Below are positions 3 through 35,724 of a stretch of 55,874 nt of DNA, piece by piece. The stretch's first letter is position 1, and each line of letters starts with the position of its first letter. The stretch comes from an uncultured Christensenella sp. (GTDB lineage: Bacteria > Bacillota > Clostridia > Christensenellales > DTU072), in contig CAYJBS010000003.1 in the NCBI GenBank assembly GCA_964368435.1, positions 1 to 55,874 of the forward strand, read 5' to 3'. The position numbers and the translations under genes were made by a program. A model generated the notes under the pieces. The model worked only from the letters and a program-made list of their open reading frames with translations. It was not told where the DNA came from and did no database searches.

Positions 3-3000
3 TTGAGCGCATTCTTGGACGATATTTCCGGCAAGAACACGCCTTATGTGCTACCAATGGAAACAAAACTGGATTTTACTTTGTATTATGACCAGTACAT
101 AAAAGAACAACAATTGCAGCGCGTACCGGGCGGTCCGAGAGACGGGCGATGGACAGCAGCCTCCCGAAACGCCTTTATTCTGAACGTTTTCATAAAAGGC
201 GCTACCGAGGCGGACAATACCACGCTCTTCAATATTTATGCCAACGACGTCTCCTTCAAAAGCAATGCTCCCGAGGAGGAACTTGGCTACATTTGGATAG
301 ATTTGGTCTGTTTGCGCGACAACCCGAATGTGCAGGCCATCCCAAAATACAAAATCCGCGAGGACTATTGGCTGCAATCCATAAACAGGTACATGAACCA
401 AACCGAGGCGGGCGAAAATGTAGACACAATGCTGAATCCCGACATAAGTCTGTCGATTATGACGATTATTTCTGCGCTTGTAGAGGACTCGTTTGTAGTT
501 TTTCAGCCTGAACAGATCGAAATAACCACCTCCAACGAAACAGTCCAGAACCTTTTCGGAGTCAAGAGCTTGATCGGAAACATCGGCACGCAAGTAGGCT
601 TGGTGCAGAGAGTTTTCGGCGTTGACGAAATCGAAGACGAATTTGCTCATTATACTGTCGGAGAGTTTACGGATATCACGGCAAGAGGCCCGTACACCAC
701 AAAACTGCATGAAAGCATAGACGTTACTTTCACTTTTGAACAGAACGGCAGAACCTGGAATGAGATTATTGCGATGAAGTTCGATTATGATCCCATCACG
801 GTCGCGGTTTCCGAGAATCCCATCGACGTATATCATCCTGAGATTTACGGTCCGATTATTATCAGCGAAACGGTGCCGAAATTCAACAGATTTATGGGCG
901 TCACGAGAGGCTACAAAATAACCATGAACGGCGGCGGTACATACTTGAAGAAAATAAGAAGACTCAACACCGAAGATTTTTATAACGCCGAGGATGACCT
1001 CATCATAACAGCCGAGGACCTTGCAGACAGAGACAAGTATACCGAAGAAGAGGCGAAATATATCAGAGAAAATTATATTCCGCATCTGCGGCTTGAGCCG
1101 AGAGAGCAATTGCCCGGCGCAATAAGTTTGGTGCTTTGGGATGAAAGTATCTATGACACCGGATATGCCACAAGGTTTGTCATCGATTGGGACGATGTCA
1201 CGTTGCAAGGCGGCGTGTACATGACAGAGGTGATTATCGCCGAAGGCATGATGGGCGAAACGGTTTTCCCGATATATATCATCGTCACAAACAGAGTTGT
1301 CGACACCTCCGAACAGAATCCGAAGGTTGTCAACGTTACTGCCGATCCCGACAGCGAAGAGCTTACGGAAGCGCCGGTTGTTGACACAGTGAACATCGAC
1401 CCATATGATTATTTGTGGGCAAAAGCCGCATACCTGAAGAAAAATATGCGCAAAGTATTTGAAACTCCGGAAGAAAAAGACATTGAGCGTACGTACTATG
1501 CGAAACAATTCATATTGAGCTATTTCAGCGCGCTTAACATCGAGATTCAGTTTGTCGATTTAGACAAAGACATACAGGATCACCGCGACACGCCCACCTA
1601 CAAAGGCGGACTGGTATGGTATTTCGACCGCTATATTCCCACGCAATATTACGACGAGACGGATATTGTGCTTACAGGCGGTTCGACATATATGCACGCT
1701 GACTTCCATGGTCAGGTAGTTGCGCTGAAACTTAATATTATGCCAAGAACGATAAGAGGCATATATTTTGACGGCGAGGAAGAGAACGATGTCTATACCG
1801 TCGATATGCTCGATGAAGAAACTTATATCATACCGCTTTATCCTACGGTGGTCTTCGAAGAAAAAGACGAAGGGGATCGGTACATAACAAAGAGGTTCTA
1901 TGACGCCTTGAATGACATTTATGTTCCTATGATATGGTCGAATCCGGAAGTCAACAATCCTACGCTTCAAGGCACGGATACACCTTTCACAGGCACCACC
2001 AGCAATCTCACAAGTTCCTACATAGACCTTTACCGCGCACTCGAGGTTGGCGAATGGATATTCAAGGAGTATTCTCCAATCCAAATCGTAAGAGTAGAAT
2101 GCCCGTCGAAAGAGATCGCCGAGCTTGATCCTGAAAACACAAGAACGGGTTACAGCAGTCTCGAAAACTGGAACAATGAGACTACGGAAGACATTTTGCC
2201 GTCATATATTCAGATAGGCTCCAACCCTGTCGGATTTTATCATGTAGATCCCTTCAACCCTGAGACAGCTAAGCTGCCGTACACAATCACCGTTACTTTC
2301 AAGGGCAGACTTGAAGGCGACCCGAATTACTCAAAACGTTACGCTGTAGAATGGGATGTATCTTCGGGATTGGTGGAACTTGTCGGGGATTATTACAGAC
2401 TGACAGTCAATTCCGACGACGAAAAGTATCTTAAACTTACTACCGAAGTGGGAAATAGTACCGTCGGTTATATCGAAATAACGCTTTGCGTAAAGATACT
2501 CACCTCACACTATACCGATATCACTTTTTATGACGAACAAAACAACGAAGTTGCCATTACAGGCAATCCTTCGACAGGGTATACCTACAAAGTAGATACT
2601 TATTCAGGCTTTAGCATCCCATATTCCTTTGCCGCGCTGTTCGGAGAGAGCGACACAAGATACTACAACACGAATTGGAAAGGCAGAGATTTGGCGGGAG
2701 AGTATGTCATACCGCTTGCGCAGATACAATTCCGACCCGGCAGCGTAATCGTTCTGATTACTACACTGCCCGGCGGCAATAACACTGTGCTTGAAGTCAA
2801 ATTGACCGTAAACGTAGTCGATTTGACACTGGAAAACATAATATTCACCAACATACCCATGTGGCGCGACGAAGGCGATCTTGTCAAGCTGCCGATTACG
2901 CTGAGGTTGAGCGACATAAACGACCTTACATTTGAGGGCATAAAAGTAAATACCGAAGGCAAAATCGAAAACTTGTATTTCGGCAGAGGTTTTTACGAAG

Positions 3001-6000
3001 ATATCGAATACAACTTTACCGGCATAAATGTTCCGGTAATTGCGGGTGTAAAGGACGAATGGGGCAATTATATTCAAGAACCTGTTCAGCCCGTTGCGCT
3101 TTATCCTTACGAACTGCTTTCACTTATTTTCATGAACGCTTGTTTGGTCTTTGATAACGGCGAAAAGTTAATAAAAGACCTTGGCATCCACAATCTCAGA
3201 GGCATAATGAATACTCAGGATATCGTGCAGAAATCCGGTGACACTATGAACTTTAATTATGGCAACGGAAAGTATGTCATCAGATTGGGACAGGGCGCAG
3301 GAGCGCACGATCTGCTCATCCGCATAAAATTTTCCGAAGGCATATTTGCGTTGTCGGGAACGACGATGCAAACGCACCGCATAAATCTCTATAACTCAGA
3401 CGGCAGCGCTATTTGGGGCATAAACGGCTTCATCCTTGGGGACAATATCAGCGCCTCAATCGAAGCCGCCATTCAAGCCACCCAAACACCTATACTCTTC
3501 GAGTATGGTCCTGAATATGGCGCCGATGCGCCGAGACTTACCGAATGGTACATCGAGAACAGCAATGTCGCGAGCATGCCCGTAGGCTCCTATATCACGC
3601 AAATTCCCATCGAAATACTCTATAACGGTTCGTTGGATGTCAGCCTCGAGATATCTTTCTTGACTGAACACGGCTTCAGAATAAAGAGGAGCCTAAACAT
3701 CGTAAAGGTCAATTTCGGTAACATGTTCAACAGCGTACCGACATATAACGACATTTTTGAAATTGTCGGCGGCAAAATCACCATAGACGACCTCTATGAA
3801 TTCAATCCGTTGAATGTCTATCTGTCAAGCCCCGATTATTTGCCGAAAGTCATAAACCGTAGATCATCTTTTTATGATATTACGGTGTCAGACATTGTGT
3901 GGACAATACATGATGACTGGAGATTTTTCCTCAACAACCACAACTACAGAGGCGAGGGCAGCGACATAAAACTTGCGACGGCGTCGATCCTTGGCTGGTA
4001 CGAAACCGTGCCCAACCAATACGGCGTGCCGGAAAGAGTGTACCACAACAGAGAACTCATAACTTTATATATCAAAGTGGAATCGGCTGAAGTCGTTTCG
4101 TTGCCGCTTGAACAAACTCACGGTCTGAAGACTGCTTATACCGACGTAGTCGTCACATCGAGTGTTGCCGACGAAATCAAAAGAGAAAGAATTTACGAAT
4201 TGTTCGGCGCTACCACAGAGTACGGTGATTATTATTATCGTGAATTTATCATAAATGTAGACGCCTACCGCAACGCAAACTATCAAGGTTTGTTTATTCC
4301 GCCGGCAAATCTGTCGGTTGGCTACCAATCGGGCGTAACTCATACTTTCTCGGGTCTGCGCTATATGTATAGAGGCGTGGAATTGACCGAAATCAGATAT
4401 GGCATCAATGGTATTATTTATTATTCCGATAATGACGGCGACTATATACTTGTCGGCACACAAAAAATCCACTTCATGAAGGGTGACAACAAATACAACA
4501 TCACGCTCAGCGTAAATCTCGGCGCAGGACAGACGATTGCTACCCGCATACACTTCTATGACAAGACTGTCGTAGCCGTCCGCCCCGTAATCGACTATGA
4601 CGACGAGGAGATACGCCGCAACATAACCACAGAGCTTGCCGAAATCTTGGACACCATAAAAACCCGTGTCCAAAACGGCATAAACTTGACGAAGCTTGAA
4701 TACGAGATAGGCTTGTGCCTCGACACAAATGTGGCGCTAAAAGAAGGCGTCAACAAAAAGAGAATAAGCAGCGAAATCAAGAAGTTGAATTCTTCAAGCA
4801 TACTTAGCGGCGCCGCTCGCGAAGTTATTTTTGCGCAGCTCAACCAAAAACCCGACTTGTACGAAAACGTCTATTCGTATGAAACCGAAAAGATAATACA
4901 CAATTATGTGGCAAATATCCTTATCGGAGTCTTTGATGCGATGGCGAATGACGGCACCGATGCTGTGTTGGCTCAGTTGACAGAATATCTCAAACCCGGC
5001 TCGCAAACGAGTTTTGCCGATGTTGAGAACGTTGTTGCATCATTCTTCGATGATGTCTACGACCAAAGCGCTCGGCTGATAATCAACAACAAAATCGTTG
5101 ATTTTGTCCAACCCGAAGTCGTCTTTGAACTTCAGCAAATGGACATTGATCAACAGATTTATCTCATAAACCTCAAGAACAATGTTGAAGCAGAACTCAA
5201 TATCGAAGCGTTGACTTCCGCCATAAAAGCTATTACGGAAACCAATTTGCAGACGGTCAGGAACGCCATTCGCACTCTCATAAATAATGAATTCGCCAGA
5301 ATGCTCAGCGTTGCGTTGGATGCAAGCGAAGATTCGGAGGAGTTGAAGAACGCTGTCCTCACAAAGATGACAGCAAGAAAAGAAGCCAAGAATGTCGCCT
5401 TGACAAACCTTAGAGATTTACTCGCCGACATACATTTCGGCACGGAGACGGGCAACACGCAAACTCTGCTCGAAAACTTCTTTGTCGATTTGTTCTATTT
5501 CGTTGAAGATGACTACAGCATGATGATTGCCGCTGTCAAACAAGAAATAGAAACTACTATCTCGAACCTTGTTTTGGAAATGCGCGCAAGCGTGGCGGCA
5601 GGACTTGCCATAAACACCGGAGGCAGACTGGGCAGAGCCATAAATCTCAGCGTAGCCTCGGCAATAAACAACGTAATGGTTGAAGGCAGAATTGTCGACG
5701 CAATGAAGATGGCGCGCAACCTAAATGTCATGAATCTCGGCAACGGACAATTTGCGATAGACCCCTATGGCGATTATATATTCGTTCCGTCAAAAACCGA
5801 AATAATATTCAGCGCCAACAACGGCGGAGACAGCTATGAAGTCAACATAAACTGGTCGAAACCCTCACAATGGTCGACACCGCGAAACCCCAACGCAGGA
5901 GTTACCTACAAAGGCAACGAAGGCAACATGCTGGACGCTATGGCATCAGCGTGGGAAATTCTATATGCGGAGATGACCAAAAAAGCCTCCGAAGTAGAAG

Positions 6001-8906
6001 GCTCCGAGGAACAACTTAGCATAGAGGATGACTTGCTTTACAGAAACATGAGCGCAGTCATCAACACTATTTATACAGAGAAACTGGGTTCGGTGAACTT
6101 GAATGAAGCACTGAAATCCGAAGGCTGGTTGGCGCTTTCAAGCGAAATCCCCGCAGGCGAACTGTTGGCAATAAGAACCAGAATAATGTTGAGCAACCCC
6201 ACTGCGGAAGGAGTGCCGCTCAATGCGCTGTGCTTTGATATGTGGGCGCACATAGAGGCATGGAACACCATAAAACTGTTGGAAGTCTATGACGATTCAC
6301 AGACACCCGAGGACGAAGATGCCATCTGGGAAAACCTTAAGATTGGCTTTGCCAGAAGAGAACTTGCCTTGTACCGCAACGAATTTACTTCGACGTTGTA
6401 CAGTGAAGGCATAGCTGCTCAAAATCTTAGCCTTATCATACTGGTGCATAGCAGAAACCTTTCGGACGGCAGCTGGAACCTCTATAATGACGAAACCAGT
6501 TGCTCCAAGCAAGATCCGTTGTATCACATAGCCGATCCCTTCGAGGGCAGAGTCGAGGACTTCCCCGACCTCATAAAACTCGATGACGGCATCATCGTAG
6601 ACGGCAAGTTCGTATCCTTCTCGGATTTATTTGTCGATTGGGATTTCAGCGATCACGCTATCAGCTATTCCGGCTCGGTAGTCATAAACCAAAATACCGG
6701 CAAGATGGGCATCATCGTAAAAGGCTACATAAAGAATGACCGGGTAGGACAAGAAGTTACGTTGCGTCTCGTCGTCAATGCGTGGGAATATAACGCCACA
6801 AGCGGCAGCGGTTTGAGACAATACAGCGGACCGGAAGGCGGCGACACAAACGACACCGCAAACTATACCATAATGAATCCTATCAGCTTTGTTTTCTCCA
6901 AGCTGGTGGATTATTCGGCGCAAAACCAGTACGAAGTCATGATAAAAGAGACTCAGTACAAGAACGAAACAGATGTCTTCGGCGAAATAACCAGAGAATG
7001 GACAGAAACCGTTTATAAAAACGTGCTGTTCTATCCTGAAGACAGCAGACTTATTCGCAGCAGCGTAGACGACGCAGAGATGGCAGAGATTGCGCGCAAG
7101 AGAAACTATATCCTTTATTGGGATGCCGAAGCCAAAGGCGTTGCCTACAACAGCGGCGGCGCGCCCATAACGGGCAGCTTCTCGCTGGGCAACGAGCACA
7201 AAAACAAACTGACTCGCGCCAACAGTTCGAGTTATCGATACGAAGAATCGTATATAAGCAAGGTCAACGCTGCGGATTATTCCATAGAAGGCCTAAAAAA
7301 CTGGTATATCGCAAAAGGCAATTCTTCGACGCAGGCGCAGGCGCTGGCGCTGGAGCAATACAACAAGCTGTACGGCAATACAGGCTCGGCGATACTTATA
7401 CTCAACCCGACCGACCCGTCACTGCCCGCAACCGTAAAGGCTCTTGGTACGTTGAACCAAACAGCAGGTACCGACCTGGGAAATGTGCGAATACTTTGGA
7501 ACAAGACATTGAGCAAAGCAAAATTAGACTTGATTGCTTACATAAAATTTATGTATCCGACGCTTACCAACAATGAGGCGGAGAAGGCGGCGATGGAGTT
7601 GCTTATCGATACCGGCAGAAGCCGCGCTCAAGAGCAGGAACTCATCGAGAATATCATAAATTGGCAACAAACTATGTGGCAACAAAACAACAATACACCT
7701 TTCTCACAGTTTGCTAACGAGTCGTGGGACATATATCTCAACCACTCTTCGACAACGCCTGCCGTACGCACCAAAATGCTCAACCTGCTTGAAACGGTGA
7801 CAAAACAAAAAGGCAACCGTCAGACGACCATAAAGAAGTACGAGGGCTGGTATCGGATGTATATGTTCCTCTATATCCGCAGTGACGTGACGCTGTATAC
7901 CGAGGACGAGAAAGCCGGCATATGGGATTCGAGGGTCAGCACTGCTACAGACCCCAATGAGTTGCTGACGATGCTTGGACACATTCAAGACGCCAACCCG
8001 AATTTGACCTTAGTCGAAATAAAGGCGCTGGCATATGACGAATACATAAAGACCGAAAAATGGATAAGCCTTAACTTAAGCTATGCAGGCACCACAGCAT
8101 TGACATCCGAAATCAACGTGTTGTATGCCGCAATTTCGGCGCAGTATCCGGCATTGAACCCCTATGAAATAAGAGCCAAGAGTTGGGACGCATTCGGAGA
8201 GGAATTCGAGAACGAAGATATGGTGTCGCTGGACGCATTGAGAGACAAAGCAGCTGCCGAAAATCCCGAAACCACAGAGATTGAAGAGCTTGGCGCCATT
8301 GCTTGGGATATGTGGCTAAAAGGCACCGCGTTCAAGGAGTGGTTCATAAAAGAAGCCAAAGCCGCGCTTTGCATAGAAGAAGAATACGATGTACAGGGTG
8401 CGCCGGGGTATCTTGACGGCGGCATTGACGGCACAAAAACAGTCACGCTGTTGCTGCAATTGACGAAGGGCGGTTACATTTATACCCAGACCTTCAAAAT
8501 CAGATTGCTTTTCCTTGATCTGTCGCCACTGCAATATTACAGCGACATGAATGGCAATCAAATTATCGGTCAGATTCCGAAGAACAATCCTCCCTCGGAA
8601 TTATCGGTTGCCGTAAAGACGGATTATAACAAAGACAGCGATTATGTCGGCGGTATCAATCCATATGACTCAAGGCAGCAAATGGTCTTTGATATGCTCG
8701 ATTATTTTGCCGGAAATGAATTCAGCGGCGACATAGTCTCAAAGATTATCGGCGGCAAGCAAACAAACGTAAAGATACTTAATATTACCAACATAACTTG
8801 GAAAATTCCCGCAGACAGCGGAAGCGGAAGTGTTATCTACTCATCCTCTTTCACAATCGGGAATGTAACGTACCGGTCGAACCTATTGAGAATGGTGTTG
8901 GTGTAA
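3..8906 (+). CDS. Giant extracellular/surface protein with its 5' end outside the window (at least 2,967 aa visible); function unknown
   Basis: A single uninterrupted frame runs from the window edge to TAA at 8904-8906. The TTG at position 3 is only the first start-like codon, so the true start is upstream. Beta-rich modules with DP[YF]...LP..v.v.f motifs (HVDPFNPETAKLPYTITVTF, AIDPYGDYIFVPSKTEIIFS) alternate with Ala/Leu/Glu/Gln-rich, presumably helical tracts at approx 4590-5740, 5900-6330 and 7250-8390. There is no LPXTG, SLH or TM segment at the C terminus (...NLLRMVLV*). Confidence 0.85.
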   Translation: MSAFLDDISGKNTPYVLPMETKLDFTLYYDQYIKEQQLQRVPGGPRDGRWTAASRNAFILNVFIKGATEADNTTLFNIYANDVSFKSNAPEEELGYIWIDLVCLRDNPNVQAIPKYKIREDYWLQSINRYMNQTEAGENVDTMLNPDISLSIMTIISALVEDSFVVFQPEQIEITTSNETVQNLFGVKSLIGNIGTQVGLVQRVFGVDEIEDEFAHYTVGEFTDITARGPYTTKLHESIDVTFTFEQNGRTWNEIIAMKFDYDPITVAVSENPIDVYHPEIYGPIIISETVPKFNRFMGVTRGYKITMNGGGTYLKKIRRLNTEDFYNAEDDLIITAEDLADRDKYTEEEAKYIRENYIPHLRLEPREQLPGAISLVLWDESIYDTGYATRFVIDWDDVTLQGGVYMTEVIIAEGMMGETVFPIYIIVTNRVVDTSEQNPKVVNVTADPDSEELTEAPVVDTVNIDPYDYLWAKAAYLKKNMRKVFETPEEKDIERTYYAKQFILSYFSALNIEIQFVDLDKDIQDHRDTPTYKGGLVWYFDRYIPTQYYDETDIVLTGGSTYMHADFHGQVVALKLNIMPRTIRGIYFDGEEENDVYTVDMLDEETYIIPLYPTVVFEEKDEGDRYITKRFYDALNDIYVPMIWSNPEVNNPTLQGTDTPFTGTTSNLTSSYIDLYRALEVGEWIFKEYSPIQIVRVECPSKEIAELDPENTRTGYSSLENWNNETTEDILPSYIQIGSNPVGFYHVDPFNPETAKLPYTITVTFKGRLEGDPNYSKRYAVEWDVSSGLVELVGDYYRLTVNSDDEKYLKLTTEVGNSTVGYIEITLCVKILTSHYTDITFYDEQNNEVAITGNPSTGYTYKVDTYSGFSIPYSFAALFGESDTRYYNTNWKGRDLAGEYVIPLAQIQFRPGSVIVLITTLPGGNNTVLEVKLTVNVVDLTLENIIFTNIPMWRDEGDLVKLPITLRLSDINDLTFEGIKVNTEGKIENLYFGRGFYEDIEYNFTGINVPVIAGVKDEWGNYIQEPVQPVALYPYELLSLIFMNACLVFDNGEKLIKDLGIHNLRGIMNTQDIVQKSGDTMNFNYGNGKYVIRLGQGAGAHDLLIRIKFSEGIFALSGTTMQTHRINLYNSDGSAIWGINGFILGDNISASIEAAIQATQTPILFEYGPEYGADAPRLTEWYIENSNVASMPVGSYITQIPIEILYNGSLDVSLEISFLTEHGFRIKRSLNIVKVNFGNMFNSVPTYNDIFEIVGGKITIDDLYEFNPLNVYLSSPDYLPKVINRRSSFYDITVSDIVWTIHDDWRFFLNNHNYRGEGSDIKLATASILGWYETVPNQYGVPERVYHNRELITLYIKVESAEVVSLPLEQTHGLKTAYTDVVVTSSVADEIKRERIYELFGATTEYGDYYYREFIINVDAYRNANYQGLFIPPANLSVGYQSGVTHTFSGLRYMYRGVELTEIRYGINGIIYYSDNDGDYILVGTQKIHFMKGDNKYNITLSVNLGAGQTIATRIHFYDKTVVAVRPVIDYDDEEIRRNITTELAEILDTIKTRVQNGINLTKLEYEIGLCLDTNVALKEGVNKKRISSEIKKLNSSSILSGAAREVIFAQLNQKPDLYENVYSYETEKIIHNYVANILIGVFDAMANDGTDAVLAQLTEYLKPGSQTSFADVENVVASFFDDVYDQSARLIINNKIVDFVQPEVVFELQQMDIDQQIYLINLKNNVEAELNIEALTSAIKAITETNLQTVRNAIRTLINNEFARMLSVALDASEDSEELKNAVLTKMTARKEAKNVALTNLRDLLADIHFGTETGNTQTLLENFFVDLFYFVEDDYSMMIAAVKQEIETTISNLVLEMRASVAAGLAINTGGRLGRAINLSVASAINNVMVEGRIVDAMKMARNLNVMNLGNGQFAIDPYGDYIFVPSKTEIIFSANNGGDSYEVNINWSKPSQWSTPRNPNAGVTYKGNEGNMLDAMASAWEILYAEMTKKASEVEGSEEQLSIEDDLLYRNMSAVINTIYTEKLGSVNLNEALKSEGWLALSSEIPAGELLAIRTRIMLSNPTAEGVPLNALCFDMWAHIEAWNTIKLLEVYDDSQTPEDEDAIWENLKIGFARRELALYRNEFTSTLYSEGIAAQNLSLIILVHSRNLSDGSWNLYNDETSCSKQDPLYHIADPFEGRVEDFPDLIKLDDGIIVDGKFVSFSDLFVDWDFSDHAISYSGSVVINQNTGKMGIIVKGYIKNDRVGQEVTLRLVVNAWEYNATSGSGLRQYSGPEGGDTNDTANYTIMNPISFVFSKLVDYSAQNQYEVMIKETQYKNETDVFGEITREWTETVYKNVLFYPEDSRLIRSSVDDAEMAEIARKRNYILYWDAEAKGVAYNSGGAPITGSFSLGNEHKNKLTRANSSSYRYEESYISKVNAADYSIEGLKNWYIAKGNSSTQAQALALEQYNKLYGNTGSAILILNPTDPSLPATVKALGTLNQTAGTDLGNVRILWNKTLSKAKLDLIAYIKFMYPTLTNNEAEKAAMELLIDTGRSRAQEQELIENIINWQQTMWQQNNNTPFSQFANESWDIYLNHSSTTPAVRTKMLNLLETVTKQKGNRQTTIKKYEGWYRMYMFLYIRSDVTLYTEDEKAGIWDSRVSTATDPNELLTMLGHIQDANPNLTLVEIKALAYDEYIKTEKWISLNLSYAGTTALTSEINVLYAAISAQYPALNPYEIRAKSWDAFGEEFENEDMVSLDALRDKAAAENPETTEIEELGAIAWDMWLKGTAFKEWFIKEAKAALCIEEEYDVQGAPGYLDGGIDGTKTVTLLLQLTKGGYIYTQTFKIRLLFLDLSPLQYYSDMNGNQIIGQIPKNNPPSELSVAVKTDYNKDSDYVGGINPYDSRQQMVFDMLDYFAGNEFSGDIVSKIIGGKQTNVKILNITNITWKIPADSGSGSVIYSSSFTIGNVTYRSNLLRMVLV

Positions 8907-8935
8907 GATATGAAACAGCTACTGGAGGCTATACA

Positions 8936-27934: not shown

Positions 27935-27942
27935 TATAGGCT

Positions 27943-27975
27943 TTGTCACCCCAAAGTCTATATTTTGGGCGACAA
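27943..27975 (+). terminator. Imperfect hairpin just after the giant ORF stop; weak terminator or RNA-processing candidate
   Basis: TTGTCACCCCAAA (27943-27955) pairs with TTTGGGCGACAA (27964-27975) across an 8-nt loop, with one mismatch and one bulge. No U-tract follows, hence the low confidence. Confidence 0.3.
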
Positions 27976-28019
27976 ATCCTCGGAAATAAATAACAATATG
28001 ATATTGGAGAACAACAAAA

Positions 28020-28049
28020 TTGACACCAAGAAACGCACTATTATATAAT
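28020..28049 (+). promoter_or_regulatory. Sigma-A-type promoter for the metallopeptidase-dockerin operon
   Basis: TTGACA (28020-28025), an 18-nt spacer, then TATAAT (28044-28049); both hexamers match consensus. GGAGG (28063-28067) and ATG (28073) follow closely, implying a short 5' UTR. Confidence 0.6.
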
Positions 28050-28072
28050 ATGATTACAAAAAGGAGGCGAGC

Positions 28073-31000
28073 ATGAAAAAAGCATATAAGATATCTTTAA
28101 TAACTGCATTTGCGGTATTGTTACTTTTGCTTGTATTTTTGTCTTGCCAAGGCTACAACTATCCTCAAACACCGTCCGAAATAGTCGGAAAGAACACTTT
28201 CACACAAACTATGGTGGAGGCAGACGGCAATGAAGCAAATTTCTTTGCCAGCGGCGACGAGAAATTCAACTATCTTCATGACAAAGATGGTTACATTTTG
28301 TTGCGTGACAACGGCTATTTGGTCTATGCCCGAAACGACGAAGGCAGACCGCAACCGACAAAAGTCCGTTATGCCGCAGGCGCCGAAAGAATCAACTCTT
28401 TGCAAAAAATGGTGTACTCCGACATAAACTTCTCTGCCAATCCCGACTTGATTGCCCAGTATCCGCAGAGCGCTTCGGCGCCTTTGCTGTCACAAAGCAG
28501 TCCTTTCGAAGTGCGCCCGATAGTCAATATAGTCATTTATGTATGCTTTGCCGGAGAAAACGTCAGTTTGGACCGTCAGCAAATAGACAGCTTTTTGAGC
28601 GGACCGACAAATTCGCTTACTGATTATTATCAGCGCCTGTCGAACGGCAAAATAATGGTACATAACATAAACCCGTTGAACGGTGAGCAGATATACATCT
28701 ACAAAGATTCACAACCGCGCAGCTATTATCAGCTCAAGAGAGGTTCTGCCAGCAGAGCGGCAAGAGAGAGAACACTTCTCAACAATGCCGTCACAGCCAG
28801 CAGACAGTATTTTCAACTTCAAGGACTTGACATAGATTCCGACGATGACGGCTTCGTAGACGCCGTAAATTTCTTGATTGCAGGATCGCCATACAGTGAG
28901 TGGGGCGGCATGCTTTGGCCCCATTCGTGGGATCTCGACGACATCTCAAGCGGCAATTCAGCGACAATTTCGGGCTTGAAAGTCAAGAAATACTCTTTCA
29001 ATTTCCTCGGACAGCTTACCGTAGGGCTACTGGCTCACGAATTTGCGCATGTGCTGGGCGTACCCGACTTGTATCACTATGACGACGCCCATGTTGCCGT
29101 AGGCAACTGGGATCTTATGCACTTTGAGGCGGATAATCCACAATATATGACAACGCATTTGCGTTATAAATATTTGAAAGCAGTCGAAGAGGAACAGATA
29201 GGGATTATTGATTATAATGGCATCTATTCGCTAAAACCGACAACGCTTACTTCTCGCGGAGAGCTTGCGGCATACCGCATAAATTCCTCAAGACCAAACG
29301 AGTATTTTATGGTAGAATACCGCAACAACAATGTTACGGGTTATGACTCTTCTCTGCCTGGCTCGGGGCTCATCGTATACAGAATAAAACAAAATGTCAC
29401 AGGAAACTCACTTGCCAAAAAGAATGACAAGAACAATCCTGACGAATTATACATATTCCGTCCGAGAGTAGTCACCACGGGTACCGAGGCGAACAATTCT
29501 TTGGCAAACCTCAACAAAGCCTTTTTGTCGCCCAGCAACGCTGTTTTTTCTTCGCTTGGTGCCAGCCTTCAACAAAAACCTGCCTCAAGCTATGACCCCA
29601 CGACGATATACTTTACCGACGGCTTGAACAGCGGCATTGTCATCAATTCGCTTTCCATAAATGACGGCGAAATAGTTTTTGAGGTTCGACTGTCCGGAGG
29701 CAACAGCGTTGACGACGATTATTTTGTCAACAAGATTTCTCTGAAGAACGCAGGTCTGATCAACAACAGCCAATTCAGCGGCGTGTATGCCGATATGACG
29801 GTGGCGGACGGCATGGCTTTGAGCAACATGAACAGCATTGTTGCAGTCCTGAAGACCTCCGACAACAGAAAGACCGCCGAAATAAGGCTTGACAGAGCCA
29901 AGTTCATACTATCCTACGACCAAGAGCTTCGCAATTTTGCGGTGCGATTCATCATAAACGACAAGGGCAACCACAATCTTTCCACGGTATTTTATGACAA
30001 TGACTGGAAGAACTATGACGAACCGTCAAATATCGAACTTTATGTCGTAGACAGCGACAACGATATGATCAAGCTTGCATCATATTCAATAAGTCAACAA
30101 AACGCATCATGGCAATCCATACAGATGACCAATACCGTATTCAAACCATCGGTATCGGCATCTTTAAGAATGACTATAGGTATCCGAAATGACGGAAAAG
30201 CTTTTGCTTCATCAATTGATGACCTTCCGGAAGAAATAGATGATGTCATTGCTGCATCTGCCGGAGCGTATCATATGCTTATTCTCAAGAGCGATTTGAA
30301 GGTTACGCATTTTGGCAGTCTGAATCAGAACGAAAACAATGTAGGTTCCTGGGCAAACATCATAAAAGTAGCGGCAGGAGAGTATACCTCGTACGGACTT
30401 GATTTGATGGGCAGAGTATTTTATGCCGGCTCAGGAGCTGCCGCAGGAGTGGCGGCTTGGACGGACATAATTGATATATCAGCCGGAAACAGACATGTTG
30501 CCGGCGTCAAATCAAACGGCAGAGTAGAGGCTTTGGGAACAGGCACCGATGCGCTTGCCGTGGGAACTTGGGAAAACATAACAGCAGTGGCTTGCGGCAA
30601 CGATTTTACTGTCGGCTTGACAAAGAGCGGCACAGTTATTGTCACCGGCAATTTGGCAAACAAGACGCAAGCGACAAATTTACGCAACATAACAAAGATT
30701 GCCGCCGGCGATCAGCACATGCTGGCACTGGACCAAAAAGGCAGAGTCTTCGCCATTGGACAGGACTTGGAAGGCAACTGTGACGTGTCGGGATACTATG
30801 ACATTATCGATATCGCCGCAGGCAACTACCAATCGGTAATGCTGCGAGAGGACGGCAAGATTTTTTATGCCGGCGTCAACACCAATAGCACCAATGACAT
30901 TTCGCAAAATTTGATATATTTCAACAATGATTACGTAGACGTAACTTCATTGCTCTCACCTTTTGAAGGAAAAATAATGAAGACAGGTGAAAGCTATTTT

Positions 31001-34000
31001 CTCAATGTTGCAGCATTGCCGCAGAATGCCACCTACAAAAAAATAACCTACAAATCCAGCGATACTGCTGTAGCGGAGGTTACAGAGGATGGCGTTGTTA
31101 CGGCAAAGGGTGAGGGAGTCACCGTTATTGACGCTACACACAGAGGCTCTTCTCTGAACGAAAAAATCACCATAACAGTTGTGGCGCCTTATCAATCGGA
31201 ATCTATGATAGCCGCAGGCGACAGCCATAGCGTCATTCTTGGCAACAACGGCACTGTGACGGCGGCGGGCGCCAACAGCAAGGGACAGTTGAATGTCAAT
31301 ATGTGGGGCAACATAAAATTCGTTGCAGCCGGAGGAGACACTACCGTAGGAATTACTCCCGACGGCGGCATTCGGGTAGCAGGAGAATTGCAGGGAATAG
31401 GCGCCGAGGACTGGACGAGTATCAAGTATGTTTCCGTCAGCAAGCGCACCATTGTGGGCATAAACTCAGACGGTGTAGTATTCGCCGTGGGAGACGACAA
31501 TTATCATCAAGTTTCATCGGTTGAAGGCATATCCGGAGCAAAAAAGGTTACCGCAAGCCCGACGCATACCGTAATAACGTATGAATCGAACGTATTTGAG
31601 GCATACGGCAACAACAACAAAGGACAACTGGGCGTAAAGTATTGGAGAAATATTCTTCAAGTAGTGGCGTGTGAAGGCTTTACTCTCGGTCTTTCAGAAG
31701 AGGGCTATTTGCTTTATGCAGGGTACTCTCCGTATATAGAAAATATGTCCGTTGTTTCGCAATGGTATGACATAGTAGCCATTGACGCAAGCGCCGACCA
31801 TATCGTGGCTGTTGACAACAACGGCAAGGTATATGCGGCAGGCAACAATTCTTACGCGCAATCAACGGTAGGCAGTATGACGCAGGTCGGCAGAATTGCC
31901 GCAGGCGGCGAACATACCGTTGGCATAAATTTTGACGGCACTATCTCCGCCGCAGGACGCAACAATGACAGCAGGCTGGTACTGCCGGCGGTCAACGAAC
32001 TGCCGAGAGTAAATCTGGAGTCGGTCAACTTCAGTGACATAACTTTCGGAGTCAGGGTAGGACAAACAAAGAGAAGCAACCTTGTCTTCCGTCCATACAA
32101 CGCAACCGACAGAAAATCCGAGAATATTTCATATTCTTCCAATTTAAGCAACATTGCCACAGTCGACAGTCAGGGCAACGTAACGGGTATTGCCGTGGGC
32201 GAAGCCACCATCACCGCCAGAATCACGAAGAACGGCGGAGGACAAAATACGGTCAGCATGACGGTATATGTTTATGATACCGTGCAATCCATAAATTTTC
32301 TTTCTCCTCCGACAAAAAACATTTACGGCTACAAAGACAAGCTGGATTTGCTTGGAGGCAAAATAAACATTGATCTCGGCGGCAACAAGAGCTTTATCAC
32401 GACATTGACTCCCGAAATGGTAGTAGGTTTTGATACTGCCACTTCCACACTGGGCGACAGAGTAATAACCGTGCGCGAATATAACGCATCAACAACATTC
32501 CCAATAAAAGTCGTCGACACCGTAAAGAATATCAACATAAGCAATATGGCGAACATGAAGACGGTATACGACTATGGCGATGCCATAGACCTTTCCGGCG
32601 GTTGGATCGGCATAACGAGAGGTTACGGAAACGTTCAGATCGAGGAGAGGATGGATAACCTTCTTCTTAACGGCTCACTGGAAGTTTTTGCCGACACAAA
32701 CATTCTTGCGACGACGACGGTGACCTTGAAATATACCGACAAAATAGCCGCAGAATCGGGCATCTCGAATATTTTCTATTTGTCCTATCAGATTACTGTA
32801 TTTGACAAGGTCATAGGATTGACAGCAGAACTTGACAAAACAATCTTCAAATACGGCGAAGAGATTTTTGGCAACGGCAGACTTATTGTCAATATGAAGT
32901 CGGGCATAGATATTTATGAGGACATACAGAGCAAAGAAGAAATTGAGGAAGGTGTCGATTCTGTCATAACTATCGGCAACTACGACAAAAATATGCTTGG
33001 AGCGCAAATAATAAAAATAAATTATTTCAATCCTGATTTTGACATTCCTTTTGCTTATTTCCCGACACTCAATATCGAGGTGCAGGACTCCATTTCCGAA
33101 GTTGAGATCACCTCAATGATGCTTGACGATGCGGCGGTGTATGATAGGACGAAATCTATCGACAGCTCGATTACCGTACGTGTCAGCTTTTCGGGCGGCG
33201 CCATAATCGATGTCGGCTATGACGGCGCGCAGCAAATGTTTGCCAACATCATTCTTGCATTTGGAGAAGTCAGTGTCGGCGATCAGGAAGGTTTCGCAAA
33301 AGTAAGCATGGAAATCAAGGTACTGGAGCGGCTGAACAACAACATACAACACAACCGCAAGTATTATGACAATGATTTGAAAGTGCTTGGGCTGGGCAGC
33401 ATTTCTTCGCTAAAATTTGTTGGCGGCTCCCAATTTGATTATGGACAAAGCACAGACCTTATGTTGGAAATAACCACCGACAACGCGGCATTGTATCGAA
33501 TAAAAATTGATGATGCCAGATTGGGACTGGACAACAAATTGTTGACTCCGCAGACTGTCAGTTTCACATTGTTGGGAGAGACTGCCACAACAACCGTTAC
33601 TTTCAAGGATTATGTGACGGGCATATATACGCAATACTTGAATATAAGCGCCATTTACGGTCAAGCGTTGCAGCTTACCGTCTATAAAACCATGGCAAGC
33701 GGCGCAGAACTGGAGATTACAGACGGTTGGGACTCCAACTATATTGCGACGAAAGAGGGTATGCAGCAGGTCACCATAACTTATTTGAACAGTTATACTT
33801 ATACCATAAATGTTACGGTGTTGAACGCTATTGCTTCCGTCAGCGTAATCAGCTCGCCGCGTACCACTTACCAAATACACGAAGACTTGGATTTGTCCGA
33901 TTTCAGCATTCGTTTGACCTTTCAAAAAGGCGACAACGAAACGGTACCCTATGCTCTCGACAAATTCTCGGTGACTGGTTTTGACAAAAACCTTATCGGC

Positions 34001-34996
34001 ATTCAGATAGTAACCATTACTTTTGATTTGACAGGCGACTATTGGGAATATGCTTTCGAAGTAAGAAACCGCATCAAGCGTATTGAAGTAGACAGAGAAC
34101 TTTCAAAAACGCTTTATACGGTAGGCGAAGATCTGGACATTACTTTGATATGTGTCTACGAAAACGGCGACAGATCAGAGATATTCGACGAGTTCGTCAA
34201 CAACTTTGACAAAAGCTTGATAGGGCAACAACAGGTAGTCAATGTCATATATTGGGGAACCTATAGTACGGCTCTCATCGTCGAAATAATAGACGCCCCA
34301 AGAGAAATAACCATAAAAGCTCCGACAAAGAAGTATTATGAATACGGCGAGCCGCTGGACCTTGACGGGGGTGTGTTGACTATTATCACACAGACCGGAA
34401 AGCGCAAAGCAGAGTCATTGATTGCATACAGAAATTATATCTCCACCTTCAATCCGACTCCGCTTTCAAAGGGTGGGCAACAGCTTACACTGACAATACC
34501 GCAATATGAGGTGTCTGCCGGTTTCATAGTCTACGTAAAAGACAAGGCAACAAGCATTATGCTTCAACCCAAAGAAAATGTCACAGGCATAAAAATAGAC
34601 CGCAACAATACAAGAGTGCTGCTTGACGAAAGCACAACGCTTGCCACCTTCAACAATATGATTTCAAGCTATGCTACCATAAGCTATAAGTCGGGCGACA
34701 GCTATTTGGACTTGAATGCGCACCAAAACGACTTGATTTCTTCGGGAGTAAAGGTAGAAATCAGAAATTCCGAAGGCGCATTGTTGGAGACTTTCAGCAT
34801 CAATGTGAAAGGCGATGCAAACGGCGACGGTTTATTTGACGACAAGGATTTGCCTATGCTGGGACAGACGCTGCTTCTCGGCACAGAAAGCGCGCTATTC
34901 TATGCCGATTATGATTCCGACAGGGAATACACGCTGACCGATTTTGTCAACTGGGTAAAAAGAGCTGAAGAAAATCAAAGGGGTAACGCAGAATGA
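28073..34996 (+). CDS. Giant multidomain lipoprotein (2,307 aa) with M6/InhA-like zinc metallopeptidase, RCC1-like propellers, Big_2 modules, an Ig-like module array and a C-terminal dockerin
   Basis: The ATG lies 5 nt after GGAGG. The signal peptide MKKAYKISLITAFAVLLLLLVFLSC has Cys25 in a lipobox-compatible context. Domain motifs are listed in the sub-features. Two Big_2-like modules lie at ~30965-31185 (TAVAEVTEDGVVTAKGEGVTVIDAT) and ~32040-32280 (IATVDSQGNVTGIAVGEATITARI). Confidence 0.92.
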   Translation: MKKAYKISLITAFAVLLLLLVFLSCQGYNYPQTPSEIVGKNTFTQTMVEADGNEANFFASGDEKFNYLHDKDGYILLRDNGYLVYARNDEGRPQPTKVRYAAGAERINSLQKMVYSDINFSANPDLIAQYPQSASAPLLSQSSPFEVRPIVNIVIYVCFAGENVSLDRQQIDSFLSGPTNSLTDYYQRLSNGKIMVHNINPLNGEQIYIYKDSQPRSYYQLKRGSASRAARERTLLNNAVTASRQYFQLQGLDIDSDDDGFVDAVNFLIAGSPYSEWGGMLWPHSWDLDDISSGNSATISGLKVKKYSFNFLGQLTVGLLAHEFAHVLGVPDLYHYDDAHVAVGNWDLMHFEADNPQYMTTHLRYKYLKAVEEEQIGIIDYNGIYSLKPTTLTSRGELAAYRINSSRPNEYFMVEYRNNNVTGYDSSLPGSGLIVYRIKQNVTGNSLAKKNDKNNPDELYIFRPRVVTTGTEANNSLANLNKAFLSPSNAVFSSLGASLQQKPASSYDPTTIYFTDGLNSGIVINSLSINDGEIVFEVRLSGGNSVDDDYFVNKISLKNAGLINNSQFSGVYADMTVADGMALSNMNSIVAVLKTSDNRKTAEIRLDRAKFILSYDQELRNFAVRFIINDKGNHNLSTVFYDNDWKNYDEPSNIELYVVDSDNDMIKLASYSISQQNASWQSIQMTNTVFKPSVSASLRMTIGIRNDGKAFASSIDDLPEEIDDVIAASAGAYHMLILKSDLKVTHFGSLNQNENNVGSWANIIKVAAGEYTSYGLDLMGRVFYAGSGAAAGVAAWTDIIDISAGNRHVAGVKSNGRVEALGTGTDALAVGTWENITAVACGNDFTVGLTKSGTVIVTGNLANKTQATNLRNITKIAAGDQHMLALDQKGRVFAIGQDLEGNCDVSGYYDIIDIAAGNYQSVMLREDGKIFYAGVNTNSTNDISQNLIYFNNDYVDVTSLLSPFEGKIMKTGESYFLNVAALPQNATYKKITYKSSDTAVAEVTEDGVVTAKGEGVTVIDATHRGSSLNEKITITVVAPYQSESMIAAGDSHSVILGNNGTVTAAGANSKGQLNVNMWGNIKFVAAGGDTTVGITPDGGIRVAGELQGIGAEDWTSIKYVSVSKRTIVGINSDGVVFAVGDDNYHQVSSVEGISGAKKVTASPTHTVITYESNVFEAYGNNNKGQLGVKYWRNILQVVACEGFTLGLSEEGYLLYAGYSPYIENMSVVSQWYDIVAIDASADHIVAVDNNGKVYAAGNNSYAQSTVGSMTQVGRIAAGGEHTVGINFDGTISAAGRNNDSRLVLPAVNELPRVNLESVNFSDITFGVRVGQTKRSNLVFRPYNATDRKSENISYSSNLSNIATVDSQGNVTGIAVGEATITARITKNGGGQNTVSMTVYVYDTVQSINFLSPPTKNIYGYKDKLDLLGGKINIDLGGNKSFITTLTPEMVVGFDTATSTLGDRVITVREYNASTTFPIKVVDTVKNINISNMANMKTVYDYGDAIDLSGGWIGITRGYGNVQIEERMDNLLLNGSLEVFADTNILATTTVTLKYTDKIAAESGISNIFYLSYQITVFDKVIGLTAELDKTIFKYGEEIFGNGRLIVNMKSGIDIYEDIQSKEEIEEGVDSVITIGNYDKNMLGAQIIKINYFNPDFDIPFAYFPTLNIEVQDSISEVEITSMMLDDAAVYDRTKSIDSSITVRVSFSGGAIIDVGYDGAQQMFANIILAFGEVSVGDQEGFAKVSMEIKVLERLNNNIQHNRKYYDNDLKVLGLGSISSLKFVGGSQFDYGQSTDLMLEITTDNAALYRIKIDDARLGLDNKLLTPQTVSFTLLGETATTTVTFKDYVTGIYTQYLNISAIYGQALQLTVYKTMASGAELEITDGWDSNYIATKEGMQQVTITYLNSYTYTINVTVLNAIASVSVISSPRTTYQIHEDLDLSDFSIRLTFQKGDNETVPYALDKFSVTGFDKNLIGIQIVTITFDLTGDYWEYAFEVRNRIKRIEVDRELSKTLYTVGEDLDITLICVYENGDRSEIFDEFVNNFDKSLIGQQQVVNVIYWGTYSTALIVEIIDAPREITIKAPTKKYYEYGEPLDLDGGVLTIITQTGKRKAESLIAYRNYISTFNPTPLSKGGQQLTLTIPQYEVSAGFIVYVKDKATSIMLQPKENVTGIKIDRNNTRVLLDESTTLATFNNMISSYATISYKSGDSYLDLNAHQNDLISSGVKVEIRNSEGALLETFSINVKGDANGDGLFDDKDLPMLGQTLLLGTESALFYADYDSDREYTLTDFVNWVKRAEENQRGNAE
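28260..29520 (+). other. M6 (immune inhibitor A-like) metallopeptidase catalytic region; HEXXH at 29036-29050
   Basis: LLAHEFAHVLGVPDLYHYDD matches the M6 signature HEF-x-H-x-LG-[LV]-PD-x-Y. Upstream, FNYLHDKDGYILLRDNGYLVYA resembles the N-terminal part of the M6 domain. Confidence 0.8.
30240..30890 (+). repeat. RCC1-like beta-propeller block 1 (six blades visible)
   Basis: The blades are SAGAYHMLILKSDLKV, AAGEYTSYGLDLMGRVFYAG, SAGNRHVAGVKSNGRVEALG, ACGNDFTVGLTKSGTVIVTG, AAGDQHMLALDQKGRVFAIG and AAGNYQSVMLREDGKIFYAG. Confidence 0.75.
31200..31990 (+). repeat. RCC1-like beta-propeller block 2 (seven blades)
   Basis: The blades are AAGDSHSVILGNNGTVTAAGANSKGQL, AAGGDTTVGITPDGGIRVAG, KRTIVGINSDGVVFAVGDDNYHQ, THTVITYESNVFEAYGNNNKGQLG, CEGFTLGLSEEGYLLYAG, SADHIVAVDNNGKVYAAGNNSYAQ and AAGGEHTVGINFDGTISAAGRNNDSRL. 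Confidence 0.8.
32281..34545 (+). repeat. Array of about nine ~75-90-aa Ig-like modules (Big_3-like pattern Y.YG..LDL.GG.i)
   Basis: The pattern recurs as IYGYKDKLDLLGGKINI, VYDYGDAIDLSGGWIGI, IFKYGEEIFGNGRLIV, QFDYGQSTDLMLEI, TYQIHEDLDLSDFSIRL, LYTVGEDLDITLICV and YYEYGEPLDLDGGVLTI. Each is followed by ...G.q.v.i.y... and a v.V ending. Confidence 0.65.
34811..34960 (+). other. Dockerin module (two EF-hand-like Ca2+ loops)
   Basis: In GDANGDGLFDDKDLPMLGQTLL ... YADYDSDREYTLTDFVNWVK, both 12-residue loops (DANGDGLFDDKD and DYDSDREYTLTD) carry D/N at positions 1, 3, 5 and 12. This matches type I dockerin duplicated segments. Confidence 0.8.
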
Positions 34997-35724
34997 AAAA
35001 AGTCGCACTAATAATACTATTGATTATACTTGCAATGGTTGCGCTTTCGGGCTGCAAAAACAAGGAAATAAGAGCCGACGAAATAAAATTTATCGAAATT
35101 CGCGACGGTTCTTTCAAGACCACTTACGCCATTGACGAACAAATAGATTTTCGTAATGTATACATAGTCATCACCCTGAAGGACAACAAGGGCGAAGTCG
35201 TAGAGCATGTGACGCCCGAAATGCTCGAGGGTTTCGACACCTTCACAACGACTGCATCTATGGAAATGCGCACCATGCGTGTAAAATACAAAGGGATGTA
35301 CACCTCGAACTGGAACTATACCGTGGCAAGCCCCTATGCCATAAACACAAAGGCGAGACTGAGACTTTCGAGCGAAAAGGTTGACAACAAATACAAACTA
35401 AGCCTCAGTGTCGAATTGGACGAGATTCCCCAAATAAACGCGCTCCAAATGCAGGTGAGCTTCAATGACACAAGGCTTGTCTACAACAACGAGACCGAGG
35501 GAGGCTTGACGGGTTGGCAGAGCAATAAGGTATCGACAAAGAGTGGAGCCTTCGATATGCTCTATTACGCCGCGCCGGGTACTCAGCCGCTGAAAGAAGA
35601 CAGCAAGTTGACTACACTGGTCTTTGATATTTTGTCGGACGGTGACTTCAATTTGCAAATAACAAATATACATGTCAGCTTCGGTGAAGGCGATATTTAT
35701 CTTCCCGATGCCACGCTGAAATAA
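34993..35724 (+). CDS. Small lipoprotein with one Ig-like module and a cohesin-like C-terminal domain
   Basis: The ATG at 34993 overlaps the TGA of the upstream gene (ATGA), and AAAGGGG lies 9 nt upstream. The signal peptide MKKVALIILLIILAMVALSGC has a canonical LSGC lipobox. The module VTPEMLEGFDTFTTTASMEMRTMRVKY is paralogous to LTPEMVVGFDTATSTLGDRVITVREY in the upstream gene. Confidence 0.9.
   Translation: MKKVALIILLIILAMVALSGCKNKEIRADEIKFIEIRDGSFKTTYAIDEQIDFRNVYIVITLKDNKGEVVEHVTPEMLEGFDTFTTTASMEMRTMRVKYKGMYTSNWNYTVASPYAINTKARLRLSSEKVDNKYKLSLSVELDEIPQINALQMQVSFNDTRLVYNNETEGGLTGWQSNKVSTKSGAFDMLYYAAPGTQPLKEDSKLTTLVFDILSDGDFNLQITNIHVSFGEGDIYLPDATLK
35335..35721 (+). other. Cohesin-like domain
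   Basis: INALQMQVSFNDTRLVYNNETEGGL ... GAFDMLYYAAPGTQPLKEDSKLTTLVFDILSDGDFNLQITNIHVS follows the cohesin pattern (a.D/Q f.v.yD...l....v..G ... g.i.f.y......i..dg.la.i.F.v..). This is pattern recognition only. Confidence 0.55.

Follow-up and report, generated by a model that had tools for sequence, protein, structure and literature searches.

The described systems that come closest to the genes discussed here are the fibrillar adhesins of Gram-positive bacteria, a class defined by Monzon and Bateman (PMC9210967; bioRxiv 10.1101/2020.12.07.414375), the S-layer proteins Sap of Bacillus anthracis and SbsB of Geobacillus stearothermophilus, proteins of the LolA/LolB/LppX-LprG kind, non-cellulosomal cohesin-dockerin anchoring, and the InhA/M6 metalloproteases. 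The locus that we compare with these systems occupies positions 3 to 35,724 of a stretch of 55,874 nucleotides (nt) from an uncultured Christensenella sp. (GenBank assembly GCA_964368435.1, contig CAYJBS010000003.1, positions 1 to 55,874 of the forward strand; hereafter, the window). It consists of four genes on the plus strand, p1 to p4, of which p1 and p2 are giants. We are inclined to think, with somewhat more confidence than doubt, that these genes form two units, namely p1 and p2, which would encode a pair of lipid-anchored, fibrillar adhesin-like proteins, and p3 and p4, a protease module.

So to what extent could p1 and p2 be considered fibrillar adhesins? Like the staphylococcal proteins Ebh and SasG, they are very large, acidic, predicted to be surface-anchored, apparently composed of strings of beta-sandwich domains, and endowed with a probable binding module far from the anchor; furthermore, p2 holds tandem arrays that become visible by profile comparison. 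In contrast to those proteins, however, the predicted anchor is an N-terminal lipid, with neither LPXTG/sortase nor a type I secretion system (T1SS) involved, recognised stalk or adhesive Pfam domains cover at most a few percent of p1 and p2, the domains, instead of being near-identical, are for the most part unique, protein length and the order of domains are kept between species under strong purifying selection, and the two proteins always come as a paralogous pair. Held against the definition of the class, p1 and p2 belong to it in part at best: there is an anchor, a lipid one, and a stalk that shows up only in profiles and models, but no recognised adhesive domain.

The other comparisons are similarly mixed. 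Sap and SbsB are surface proteins of Bacillota whose chains of immunoglobulin (Ig)-like domains match a segment of p2 (E ~1e-5), whereas p1 and p2 are predicted to be lipid-anchored, are 5-8 times longer, and have no S-layer homology (SLH) or other wall-anchoring domain. The LolA/LolB/LppX-LprG proteins resemble the N-terminal module of p2, which lies beside the presumably lipidated cysteine, in predicted fold but show no sequence similarity to it, and the template-modelling scores (TM-scores) are no higher than 0.45; moreover, these are small soluble carriers, whereas the module in question would be the base of a giant protein, and the host is apparently a monoderm of the Clostridium type, judging from SpoIIE and neighbouring genes. 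With non-cellulosomal cohesin-dockerin systems the locus shares a cohesin lipoprotein, p4, and an enzyme with a putative dockerin, p3, encoded by overlapping genes; yet there is no scaffoldin, carbohydrate-binding module or glycoside hydrolase cargo, and the predicted cargo is an M6 protease with an RCC1 propeller that also has a lipobox of its own. Finally, p3 is akin to the InhA/M6 metalloproteases in that it scores above the cut-off of TIGR03296 and has the HEXXH...D zinc motif but differs from them in its length of about 2,300 amino acids, in the additional RCC1, Big_2, Big_3 and dockerin modules, and in its lipoprotein signal.

In general kind, thus, p1 and p2 are best read as giant multi-Ig-domain surface proteins, comparable to fibrillar adhesins, that constitute a new, unannotated family. 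Because their folds resemble those of known proteins of this kind, they are less unprecedented than the initial annotation of the window suggested. What is distinctive about them is the combination of a LolA-like N-terminal module, an obligatory paralogous pair, mostly unique domains of conserved length, and a narrow and rare distribution. About 10,000 residues encoded here are without Pfam or NCBIfam coverage, and these databases would gain new families if the N-terminal module and the domain types were defined. For a small genome, two conserved proteins of about 400 and about 700 kDa that are kept under strong purifying selection represent a considerable expense, and the pair clearly suggests itself as a candidate for the structure on the surface that underlies attachment or the architecture of the envelope.

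The giant genes and their family

A scan of open reading frames (ORFs), together with the translations, upholds the layout that had been read from the window at the outset. The genes p1 (ORF1; 3-8906), p2 (ORF2; 8936-27934), p3 (ORF3; 28073-34996) and p4 (ORF4; 34993-35724) lie head to tail on one strand, comprise at least 2,967, 6,332, 2,307 and 243 codons, respectively, and jointly take up 64% of the window; the gaps between them are 29 nt (p1-p2) and 138 nt (p2-p3), and p3 and p4 overlap by ATGA. The left end of p1 is beyond the window edge, with 2,967 amino acids inside. The frame of p2, the product of which is a protein of 6,332 amino acids (719 kDa; isoelectric point (pI) 4.5), is open from position 8798, and the credible start is the GTG codon at 8936, with GGAGG 7 nt before it. 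By our own arithmetic, the chance of a stop-free frame of 6,332 codons in random DNA is about e^-300.

Collinear loci are present in independent assemblies, at 82% nucleotide identity to the window in the case of locus L013, 74.5% for L005, and about 65% for L011, L012, L008 and L003. A metagenome scan returned a single locus, L016, with 63% amino acid identity over the block shared by p1 and p2, and identical copies of p4 were located by exact-sequence look-up on two short contigs of independent assembly, which match the window at 99%. Intact orthologues of p2 are 6,332, 6,267 and 6,261 amino acids long and those of p1 3,626, 3,643 and 3,618 amino acids. For p2, the ratio of nonsynonymous to synonymous substitution rates (dN/dS) is 0.069 in the comparison with L013 (dS 0.94; 3,323 codons) and 0.077 in the comparison with L005, with hardly any indel across 4,747 aligned codons. 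Given the collinear, stop-free orthologues in at least six independent assemblies (L005, L008, L011, L012, L013 and L016) and a dN/dS of about 0.07, the giant ORFs are real genes under strong purifying selection, as had been assumed. The start of p1 that the initial annotation sought to the left of the window is supplied by the L013 orthologue (P0015; 3,626 amino acids), which begins with a lipobox and compared to which the p1 of the window is short of 657 N-terminal residues; the full-length p1 would thus have about 3,626 amino acids. The identity between the p1 of the window and its L003 homologue is 51%.

By sequence, p1 and p2 are distant paralogues, with 22.5% identity over 812 amino acids in BLASTP and a register offset of about 570-585 residues. 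The block that they share (10691-13195; residues 586-1420 of p2, matching residues 1-900 of p1) served as the family profile (alignment A1), and a three-sequence profile of this block was searched with HMMER against 1.84 billion representative proteins. This search yielded 94 proteins (clusters), 81 of them with E-values below 1e-30; most of the 94 clusters hold only 1-11 members. Nearly all are 2.8-6.8 thousand amino acids long and the shared block is always found at approximately residues 580-1450. Two subfamilies of similar numbers can be told apart, p1-like (2.8-4.7 thousand amino acids) and p2-like (3.5-6.8 thousand amino acids), the latter including p2 itself, and in every locus with readable flanks (L003, L005 and L007-L016) a p2-like gene comes directly after a p1-like one. 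Word-indexed searches with residues 1-2000 and residues 4533-6332 of p2 returned one protein each.

The named sources of these proteins are metagenome-assembled genomes, labelled Christensenellales bacterium, uncultured Christensenella sp., Candidatus Stercoripulliclostridium, Clostridiales bacterium DTU072 and 'Clostridia bacterium'; thus, so far the family is named only from Christensenellales-type gut and digester Clostridia. All names on record for its members are 'hypothetical protein', and literature searches found no publication on the family. Likewise, p1 and p2 match no Pfam family above threshold, the sub-threshold matches being to Big_4 and a DUF, the NCBIfam scan of both is empty, and comparison of p1, p2 and a C-terminal profile with the sequences in the Protein Data Bank (PDB) gave nothing meaningful. 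These searches agree with the original impression that the two giants bear no hallmarks of known adhesins or of nonribosomal peptide and polyketide synthetases (NRPS/PKS). The latter can be rejected, there being no C/A/T/KS/AT domains across the whole of p1 and p2 in Pfam and NCBIfam, and so can an RTX/Bap adhesin, as the same scans detect no RTX nonapeptide, T1SS signal or Bap domain.

The two giant genes are probably co-transcribed, and their constant pairing, together with the 29-nt spacing that contains no terminator, suggests that p1 and p2 are made and act together. In the related loci L009, L010 and L013, a gene for a lipoprotein of 720-905 amino acids is located just upstream of the p1-like gene (L013 7421-9703; L009 5897-8614; L010 7441-9606), which places its counterpart beyond the present window. 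This protein has no Pfam or NCBIfam match and, in the case of u13, shows a marginal similarity to the N-terminal module of the giants (hhalign E 0.036). It is a candidate for a third component of the giant system.

Anchors, domains and folds of p1 and p2

Lipoprotein signals were recognised as signal peptides that end in [LVI][ASTVI][GAS]C. Such a signal is found at the start of p2 (8936-9007), with the lipobox LLAC at residues 21-24; p3 has FLSC, which is less canonical, and p4 has LSGC. The signals of ORF2 and ORF3, which the initial annotation had pointed out, are thereby borne out, with those of ORF4 and of the ORF1 orthologue to be added, and p2, p3 and p4 are accordingly predicted lipoproteins, as is p1 through its orthologue. 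A lipobox-like motif is located near the N-terminus in most full-length members of the giant family. In agreement with the first reading, sequence inspection and domain scans reveal no LPXTG, no SLH match and no C-terminal or further transmembrane segment in p1 and p2; a hydrophobic window around residue 5520 of p2 falls within an apparently helical repeat and is no transmembrane segment. Both proteins are acidic (pI ~4.5) and cysteine-poor.

Immediately downstream of the signal peptide, p2 contains an N-terminal module (9008-10750; residues 25-605) that, according to the identity profile, is the best-conserved region of the family. Modelled with AlphaFold2 from an alignment of 19 sequences, this module consists of long antiparallel sheets packed with helices, at a predicted local distance difference test score (pLDDT) of 83.9 and a predicted template-modelling score (pTM) of 0.76. 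A Foldseek search of the PDB matched it to LolA, LolB, LppX, DUF1329 and the Staphylococcus aureus lipoprotein SAOUHSC_02783 with probabilities of 0.96-1.0, and the double-barrel proteins Fsa2/Phm7 and BFA1 are also among the matches. These models are suggestive of two or three LolA-like open beta-barrels with helices.

The adjacent segment, residues 586-1560, was modelled from 25 sequences (pLDDT 79.5; pTM 0.46) as a mostly beta structure with approximately 5-6 separate beta-sandwich domains. The best fold matches are protocadherin ectodomains, Sap, SbsB, SusE-like proteins and BbgIII Ig arrays (E 1e-7 to 1e-4), and the model is one of beads on a string. The elongated, fibril-like architecture that had been envisaged for the giants fits both these models and the fold matches.

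Are p1 and p2 repetitive, as fibrillar adhesins tend to be? At the level of BLAST self-comparison ORF2 can be called non-repetitive, with no internal repeats in either p1 or p2; profile comparison, however, uncovers cryptic arrays in p2. One of these (18005-22510; residues 3024-4525), with a unit of about 115 amino acids and E-values of 2e-14 to 1e-8 in hhalign self-comparison, is the least conserved part of p2 and is missing from the block map of the shorter homologues, that is, it corresponds to an insertion relative to the members of 3.6-3.9 thousand amino acids, one that makes p2 about 2,500 amino acids longer than the minimal homologues. A second array (25094-26350; residues 5387-5805) comprises four WP-x-T repeats of about 103 amino acids (hhalign self-match E 3e-32), which judging by their sequence are probably alpha-helical. 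Flanked by the beta-sandwich rod on one side and the MBG/beta-helix region on the other, these repeats have no match among known families. Similarly, residues 895-2950 of the homologue P0023 (3.8 thousand amino acids) are internally repetitive in profile self-comparison (E 8e-29), whereas p1 shows almost no self-similarity by this approach.

In the C-terminal region of p2 (26351-27931), MBG-like beta domains would lead up to a tip that is probably a right-handed beta-helix. The L007 homologue, whose C-terminus can be aligned with this region at 28% identity, matches Pfam Beta_helix over its last 140 residues, as does P0041 (3e-8 and 1.8e-7, respectively), and orthologues of p2 give weak MBG_3/MBG_2 matches ahead of the beta-helix region. 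Across the family, matches to Big_4, MBG and Beta_helix are scattered among the members, known stalk domains thus being sporadic only. A DPY motif is enriched yet too rare to define a repeat, and the Big_4-like regular expression LP..V.V...G....W has few matches.

The p3-p4 module and the p2-p3 boundary

The 2,307-amino acid product of p3 (253 kDa) is a predicted lipoprotein in which an M6 protease domain is joined by RCC1 repeats, by Big_2 and Big_3 domains and, at the C-terminus, by a putative dockerin. The metalloprotease domain (28577-29383; residues 169-437) scores 128.1 bits against NCBIfam TIGR03296, with a cut-off of 110.8, and 21.4 bits against Pfam Peptidase_M6, slightly under the cut-off of 22; its HEXXH motif is HEFAH, at residue 322 (HEFAHVLGVPDLY), and the HEXXH...D zinc motif is present. 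The region of RCC1 repeats, a putative beta-propeller (30665-31861), matches RCC1_2 (5.7e-48) and WD40_RLD (1.4e-40) in Pfam, with Big_2 (5.7e-12) interleaved. The putative dockerin (34808-34948) has two predicted calcium loops, DANGDGLFDDKD, which was found by motif search, and DYDSDREYTLTD, which was read from the sequence. Its Dockerin_1 score of 18.9 bits is under the cut-off of 22.9, and the L011 orthologue, at 32.9 bits, is above it. The identity of p3 to its orthologues is 49% in L011 and 56% in L012.

The 243-amino acid lipoprotein encoded by p4 has a cohesin domain at residues 136-232 (35398-35688), which passes the Pfam cut-off marginally (25.2 against 24.1 bits); its L011 orthologue is 44% identical. 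The proposal that the locus includes an M6-dockerin protease and a cohesin lipoprotein is thus supported, with TIGR03296 and Cohesin above their cut-offs in the window and the dockerin above it in the L011 orthologue. Beyond the cohesin, residues 29-96 of p4 (35080-35280) and residues 1402-1468 of p3 (32276-32476) are 32% identical (E 1e-4), which suggests that the N-terminal half of p4 and the internal segment of p3 share a small beta domain. A further peculiarity of p3 is that, with the FLSC lipobox (28073-28150) at its start and the putative dockerin (34808-34948) at its C-terminus, it could be held to the membrane at either end, through lipid at the one and through p4 at the other, which would be an unusual topology.

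Is this module a part of the giant-protein system? Two elements between p2 and p3 split the four-gene island, as it had been perceived, into two transcription units. The first is a hairpin over and after the p2 stop codon (27925-27971), a probable terminator or RNA-stabilising stem; it is the 5' stem of an 86-nt stretch, 27925-28010, with a folding energy of -23.8 kcal/mol (z = -4.05; none of 200 shuffles as stable). The second is a sigma-70-type promoter before p3 (28020-28049), TTGACA-18-TATAAT, with 12 matches out of 12. An Rfam scan of the window detected no RNA families.

Furthermore, the clade of the window itself is the only one in which p3 and p4 come after the giants, both of them in L011 and p3 in L012, the contig of which ends inside p3. 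In L007 and L015 the giant pair is followed by an AI-2E transporter gene and in L014 by unrelated genes, with no p3 or p4 at these places. The AI-2E family gene after the p2-like gene (L007 14449-15639; L015 21803-22870) is itself followed by a conserved ORF of about 330 amino acids without a Pfam match. The GH20 and Ca-ATPase genes downstream of p4 are conserved in L011 in the same way as p3 and p4, which makes the adjacency of p3 and p4 to the giants look like ordinary synteny. In addition, a motif search detects no dockerin-type calcium loop in p1 or p2. The earlier view of a single four-gene apparatus is therefore not supported: p1 and p2 are paired across the whole family, p3 and p4 accompany them in one clade only, a hairpin and a promoter intervene, and p1 and p2 have no dockerin motif. 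The two genes are best treated as a neighbouring, independent cohesin-dockerin module outside the giant-protein system.

Possible functions, alternatives and neighbouring genes

The scenario that we consider somewhat more probable than the rest combined would run as follows. Upon export by the Sec system, p1 and p2 would be lipidated at the lipobox cysteine, with the N-terminus held in the outer leaflet of the cytoplasmic membrane. Next to the membrane, 600-700 residues would fold as LolA/LppX-like open beta-barrels and form the base, and the remainder would make up a rod of mostly unique beta-sandwich domains, perhaps 25 in p1 and 45 in p2, that projects through and past the wall over a distance on the order of 100-200 nm if extended; with about 120 amino acids and a length of about 4 nm to each domain, p2 could extend for approximately 0.2 micrometre. 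At the far end of p2, the four helical repeats, the MBG-like domains and the right-handed beta-helix would be the likely ligand-binding tip. The pair would thus act as long fibrils on the cell surface that attach to particles, mucus glycans or partner cells, or that organise the envelope. The second unit would be transcribed from its own promoter, and p3, a zinc metalloprotease of the M6 (InhA-like) group that also carries an RCC1 propeller and Ig-like domains, would bind with its C-terminal dockerin to the cohesin of p4, the small lipoprotein. Display on the surface, the length of the rod, the function of the tip, the joint action of p1 and p2 and the binding of p3 by p4 are the parts of this scenario that we infer.

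Several facts weigh against it. Pfam and NCBIfam identify no adhesive or catalytic domain in p1 and p2. The LolA-like matches of the N-terminal module have TM-scores of 0.3-0.45 per target, and the structure models cover about 1,550 of the approximately 9,900 residues of p1 and p2. The C-terminal region of p2 itself has no Pfam match, the beta-helix tip being extrapolated from homologues that are 28% identical. For fibrillar adhesins, the stalks of which usually vary in repeat number, strong purifying selection, unique, non-interchangeable domains and fixed length are unusual; a structural or lattice role would be just as compatible with these features. Finally, in L011 and L012 p3 and p4 still adjoin a giant pair in which p2 is only 51% identical to that of the window, so that within this clade the two units may be functionally linked.

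The main rival to fibrils starts from exactly these features and has p1, p2 and the upstream lipoprotein build the atypical outer wall layer of Christensenellales as an envelope scaffold or S-layer-like coat, in which unique domain strings of fixed length pack laterally or set the spacing, without binding any external ligands. This scheme accommodates the Foldseek matches to Bacillus anthracis Sap and Geobacillus SbsB, the dN/dS of about 0.07 along the whole length with conserved length and domain order, and the 1:1 pairing, which suggests hetero-assembly. It also sits well with what is reported of the Christensenella wall, namely that it is of the Gram-negative type, in C. minuta in the absence of lpxABCD, lptA, ompH and bamA, hence without the genes for lipopolysaccharide (LPS) and BamA, and that the envelope of Christensenellales is atypical and poorly understood (PMC11448272). 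Nevertheless, no SLH, CWB2 or other wall-binding module is found in p1 and p2, which are 5-8 times larger than known S-layer proteins and would be very costly as a major coat, and databases contain only 94 clusters of the family, most with 1-11 members, which makes it very rare. We regard such a coat as unlikely, albeit to be taken seriously; an S-layer protein of the SLH type, specifically, is ruled out as there is no SLH or CWB2 match in p1 or p2.

A bolder version, and rather a long shot, is that the upstream lipoprotein, p1 and p2 constitute an undescribed envelope system found exclusively in Christensenellales, either an outer wall layer or fibrils of 0.1-0.2 micrometre for flocculation and the capture of syntrophs. 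If true, such a system would consist of lipid-binding double-barrel bases that carry dozens of unique beta-sandwich domains of fixed length, and it could account for the outer layer of a Gram-negative-staining, LPS-less member of the Bacillota or for the capture of partners such as Methanobrevibacter. Christensenellales include gut bacteria reported to associate with host leanness, and C. minuta is reported to form flocs with Methanobrevibacter (PMC7002349). A link between these flocs and p1 and p2 would be attractive.

Alternatively, all four genes could encode one integrated apparatus, in which p3, docked on p4, matures, trims or sheds the p1/p2 fibrils. The order p1-p2-p3-p4 is kept in L011, and p1-p2-p3 in L012, at the mentioned 51% identity of p2, and all four products have lipoprotein signals, in the case of p1 by orthologue, and would hence share a compartment. 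Such an apparatus appears distinctly unlikely, though, in view of the hairpin and the perfect promoter that part p2 from p3, the equal conservation of GH20 and Ca-ATPase, which is what plain synteny looks like, the AI-2E transporter or other genes that replace p3 and p4 in L007, L015 and L014, and the absence of a dockerin from p1 and p2.

It is also conceivable, by analogy with LppX/LprG and bridge-like transporters, that the giants handle lipids or other hydrophobic ligands, with the N-terminal barrels binding acyl chains or glycolipids and the proteins shuttling or holding envelope lipids across the wall. The Foldseek probabilities of 0.96-1.0 to LolA, LolB, DUF1329 and LppX and the fact that no part of the family is better conserved than the N-terminal module point in this direction. 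The low TM-scores do not, and the other 90% of the protein is predicted to form discrete beta-sandwich domains with no continuous groove, which renders this function very improbable. As for the idea that the giant ORFs arose by chimeric assembly or are pseudogenes in decay, which could be entertained because the window comes from an uncultured-type assembly and the homologue of p2 in L003, from a metagenome-assembled genome labelled uncultured Christensenella, stops after 2,259 codons, near the contig end, it is for practical purposes excluded by the collinear, intact orthologues and the low dN/dS, the L003 stop being 86 nt from the end of its contig and the independent Logan contig L004 breaking at the identical codon. 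At the place concerned (L003 12903-12991 and the end of L004), the assembly probably breaks where the sequence is variable or repeated, with no true truncation.

Downstream of p4, the window encodes a GH20 hexosaminidase, a Ca-type P-ATPase, signal peptidase I, SpoIIE, TilS and Hpt, and further downstream the CCA-adding enzyme, a GntR regulator and a glycyl-radical enzyme with its activase, a set of genes by which the window is assigned to a Clostridia genome. The GH20 protein was considered as a part of the surface apparatus and rejected, as it has no signal peptide and is thus cytoplasmic. Between the Ca-ATPase and signal peptidase I lies an ORF of 548 amino acids (39862-41508) with no significant match in Pfam or NCBIfam, and the same is true of an ORF of 278 amino acids at 51984-52820. 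The GntR-type regulator, the glycyl-radical enzyme (PFL2/HypD-like; 827 amino acids) and the radical-SAM activase form a compact cluster (47670-51987). Near the right edge, on the minus strand, an ORF of 522 amino acids (53665-55233) matches Lectin_like (1.5e-10) and, weakly, FIVAR, and its product is probably a surface or carbohydrate-binding protein.

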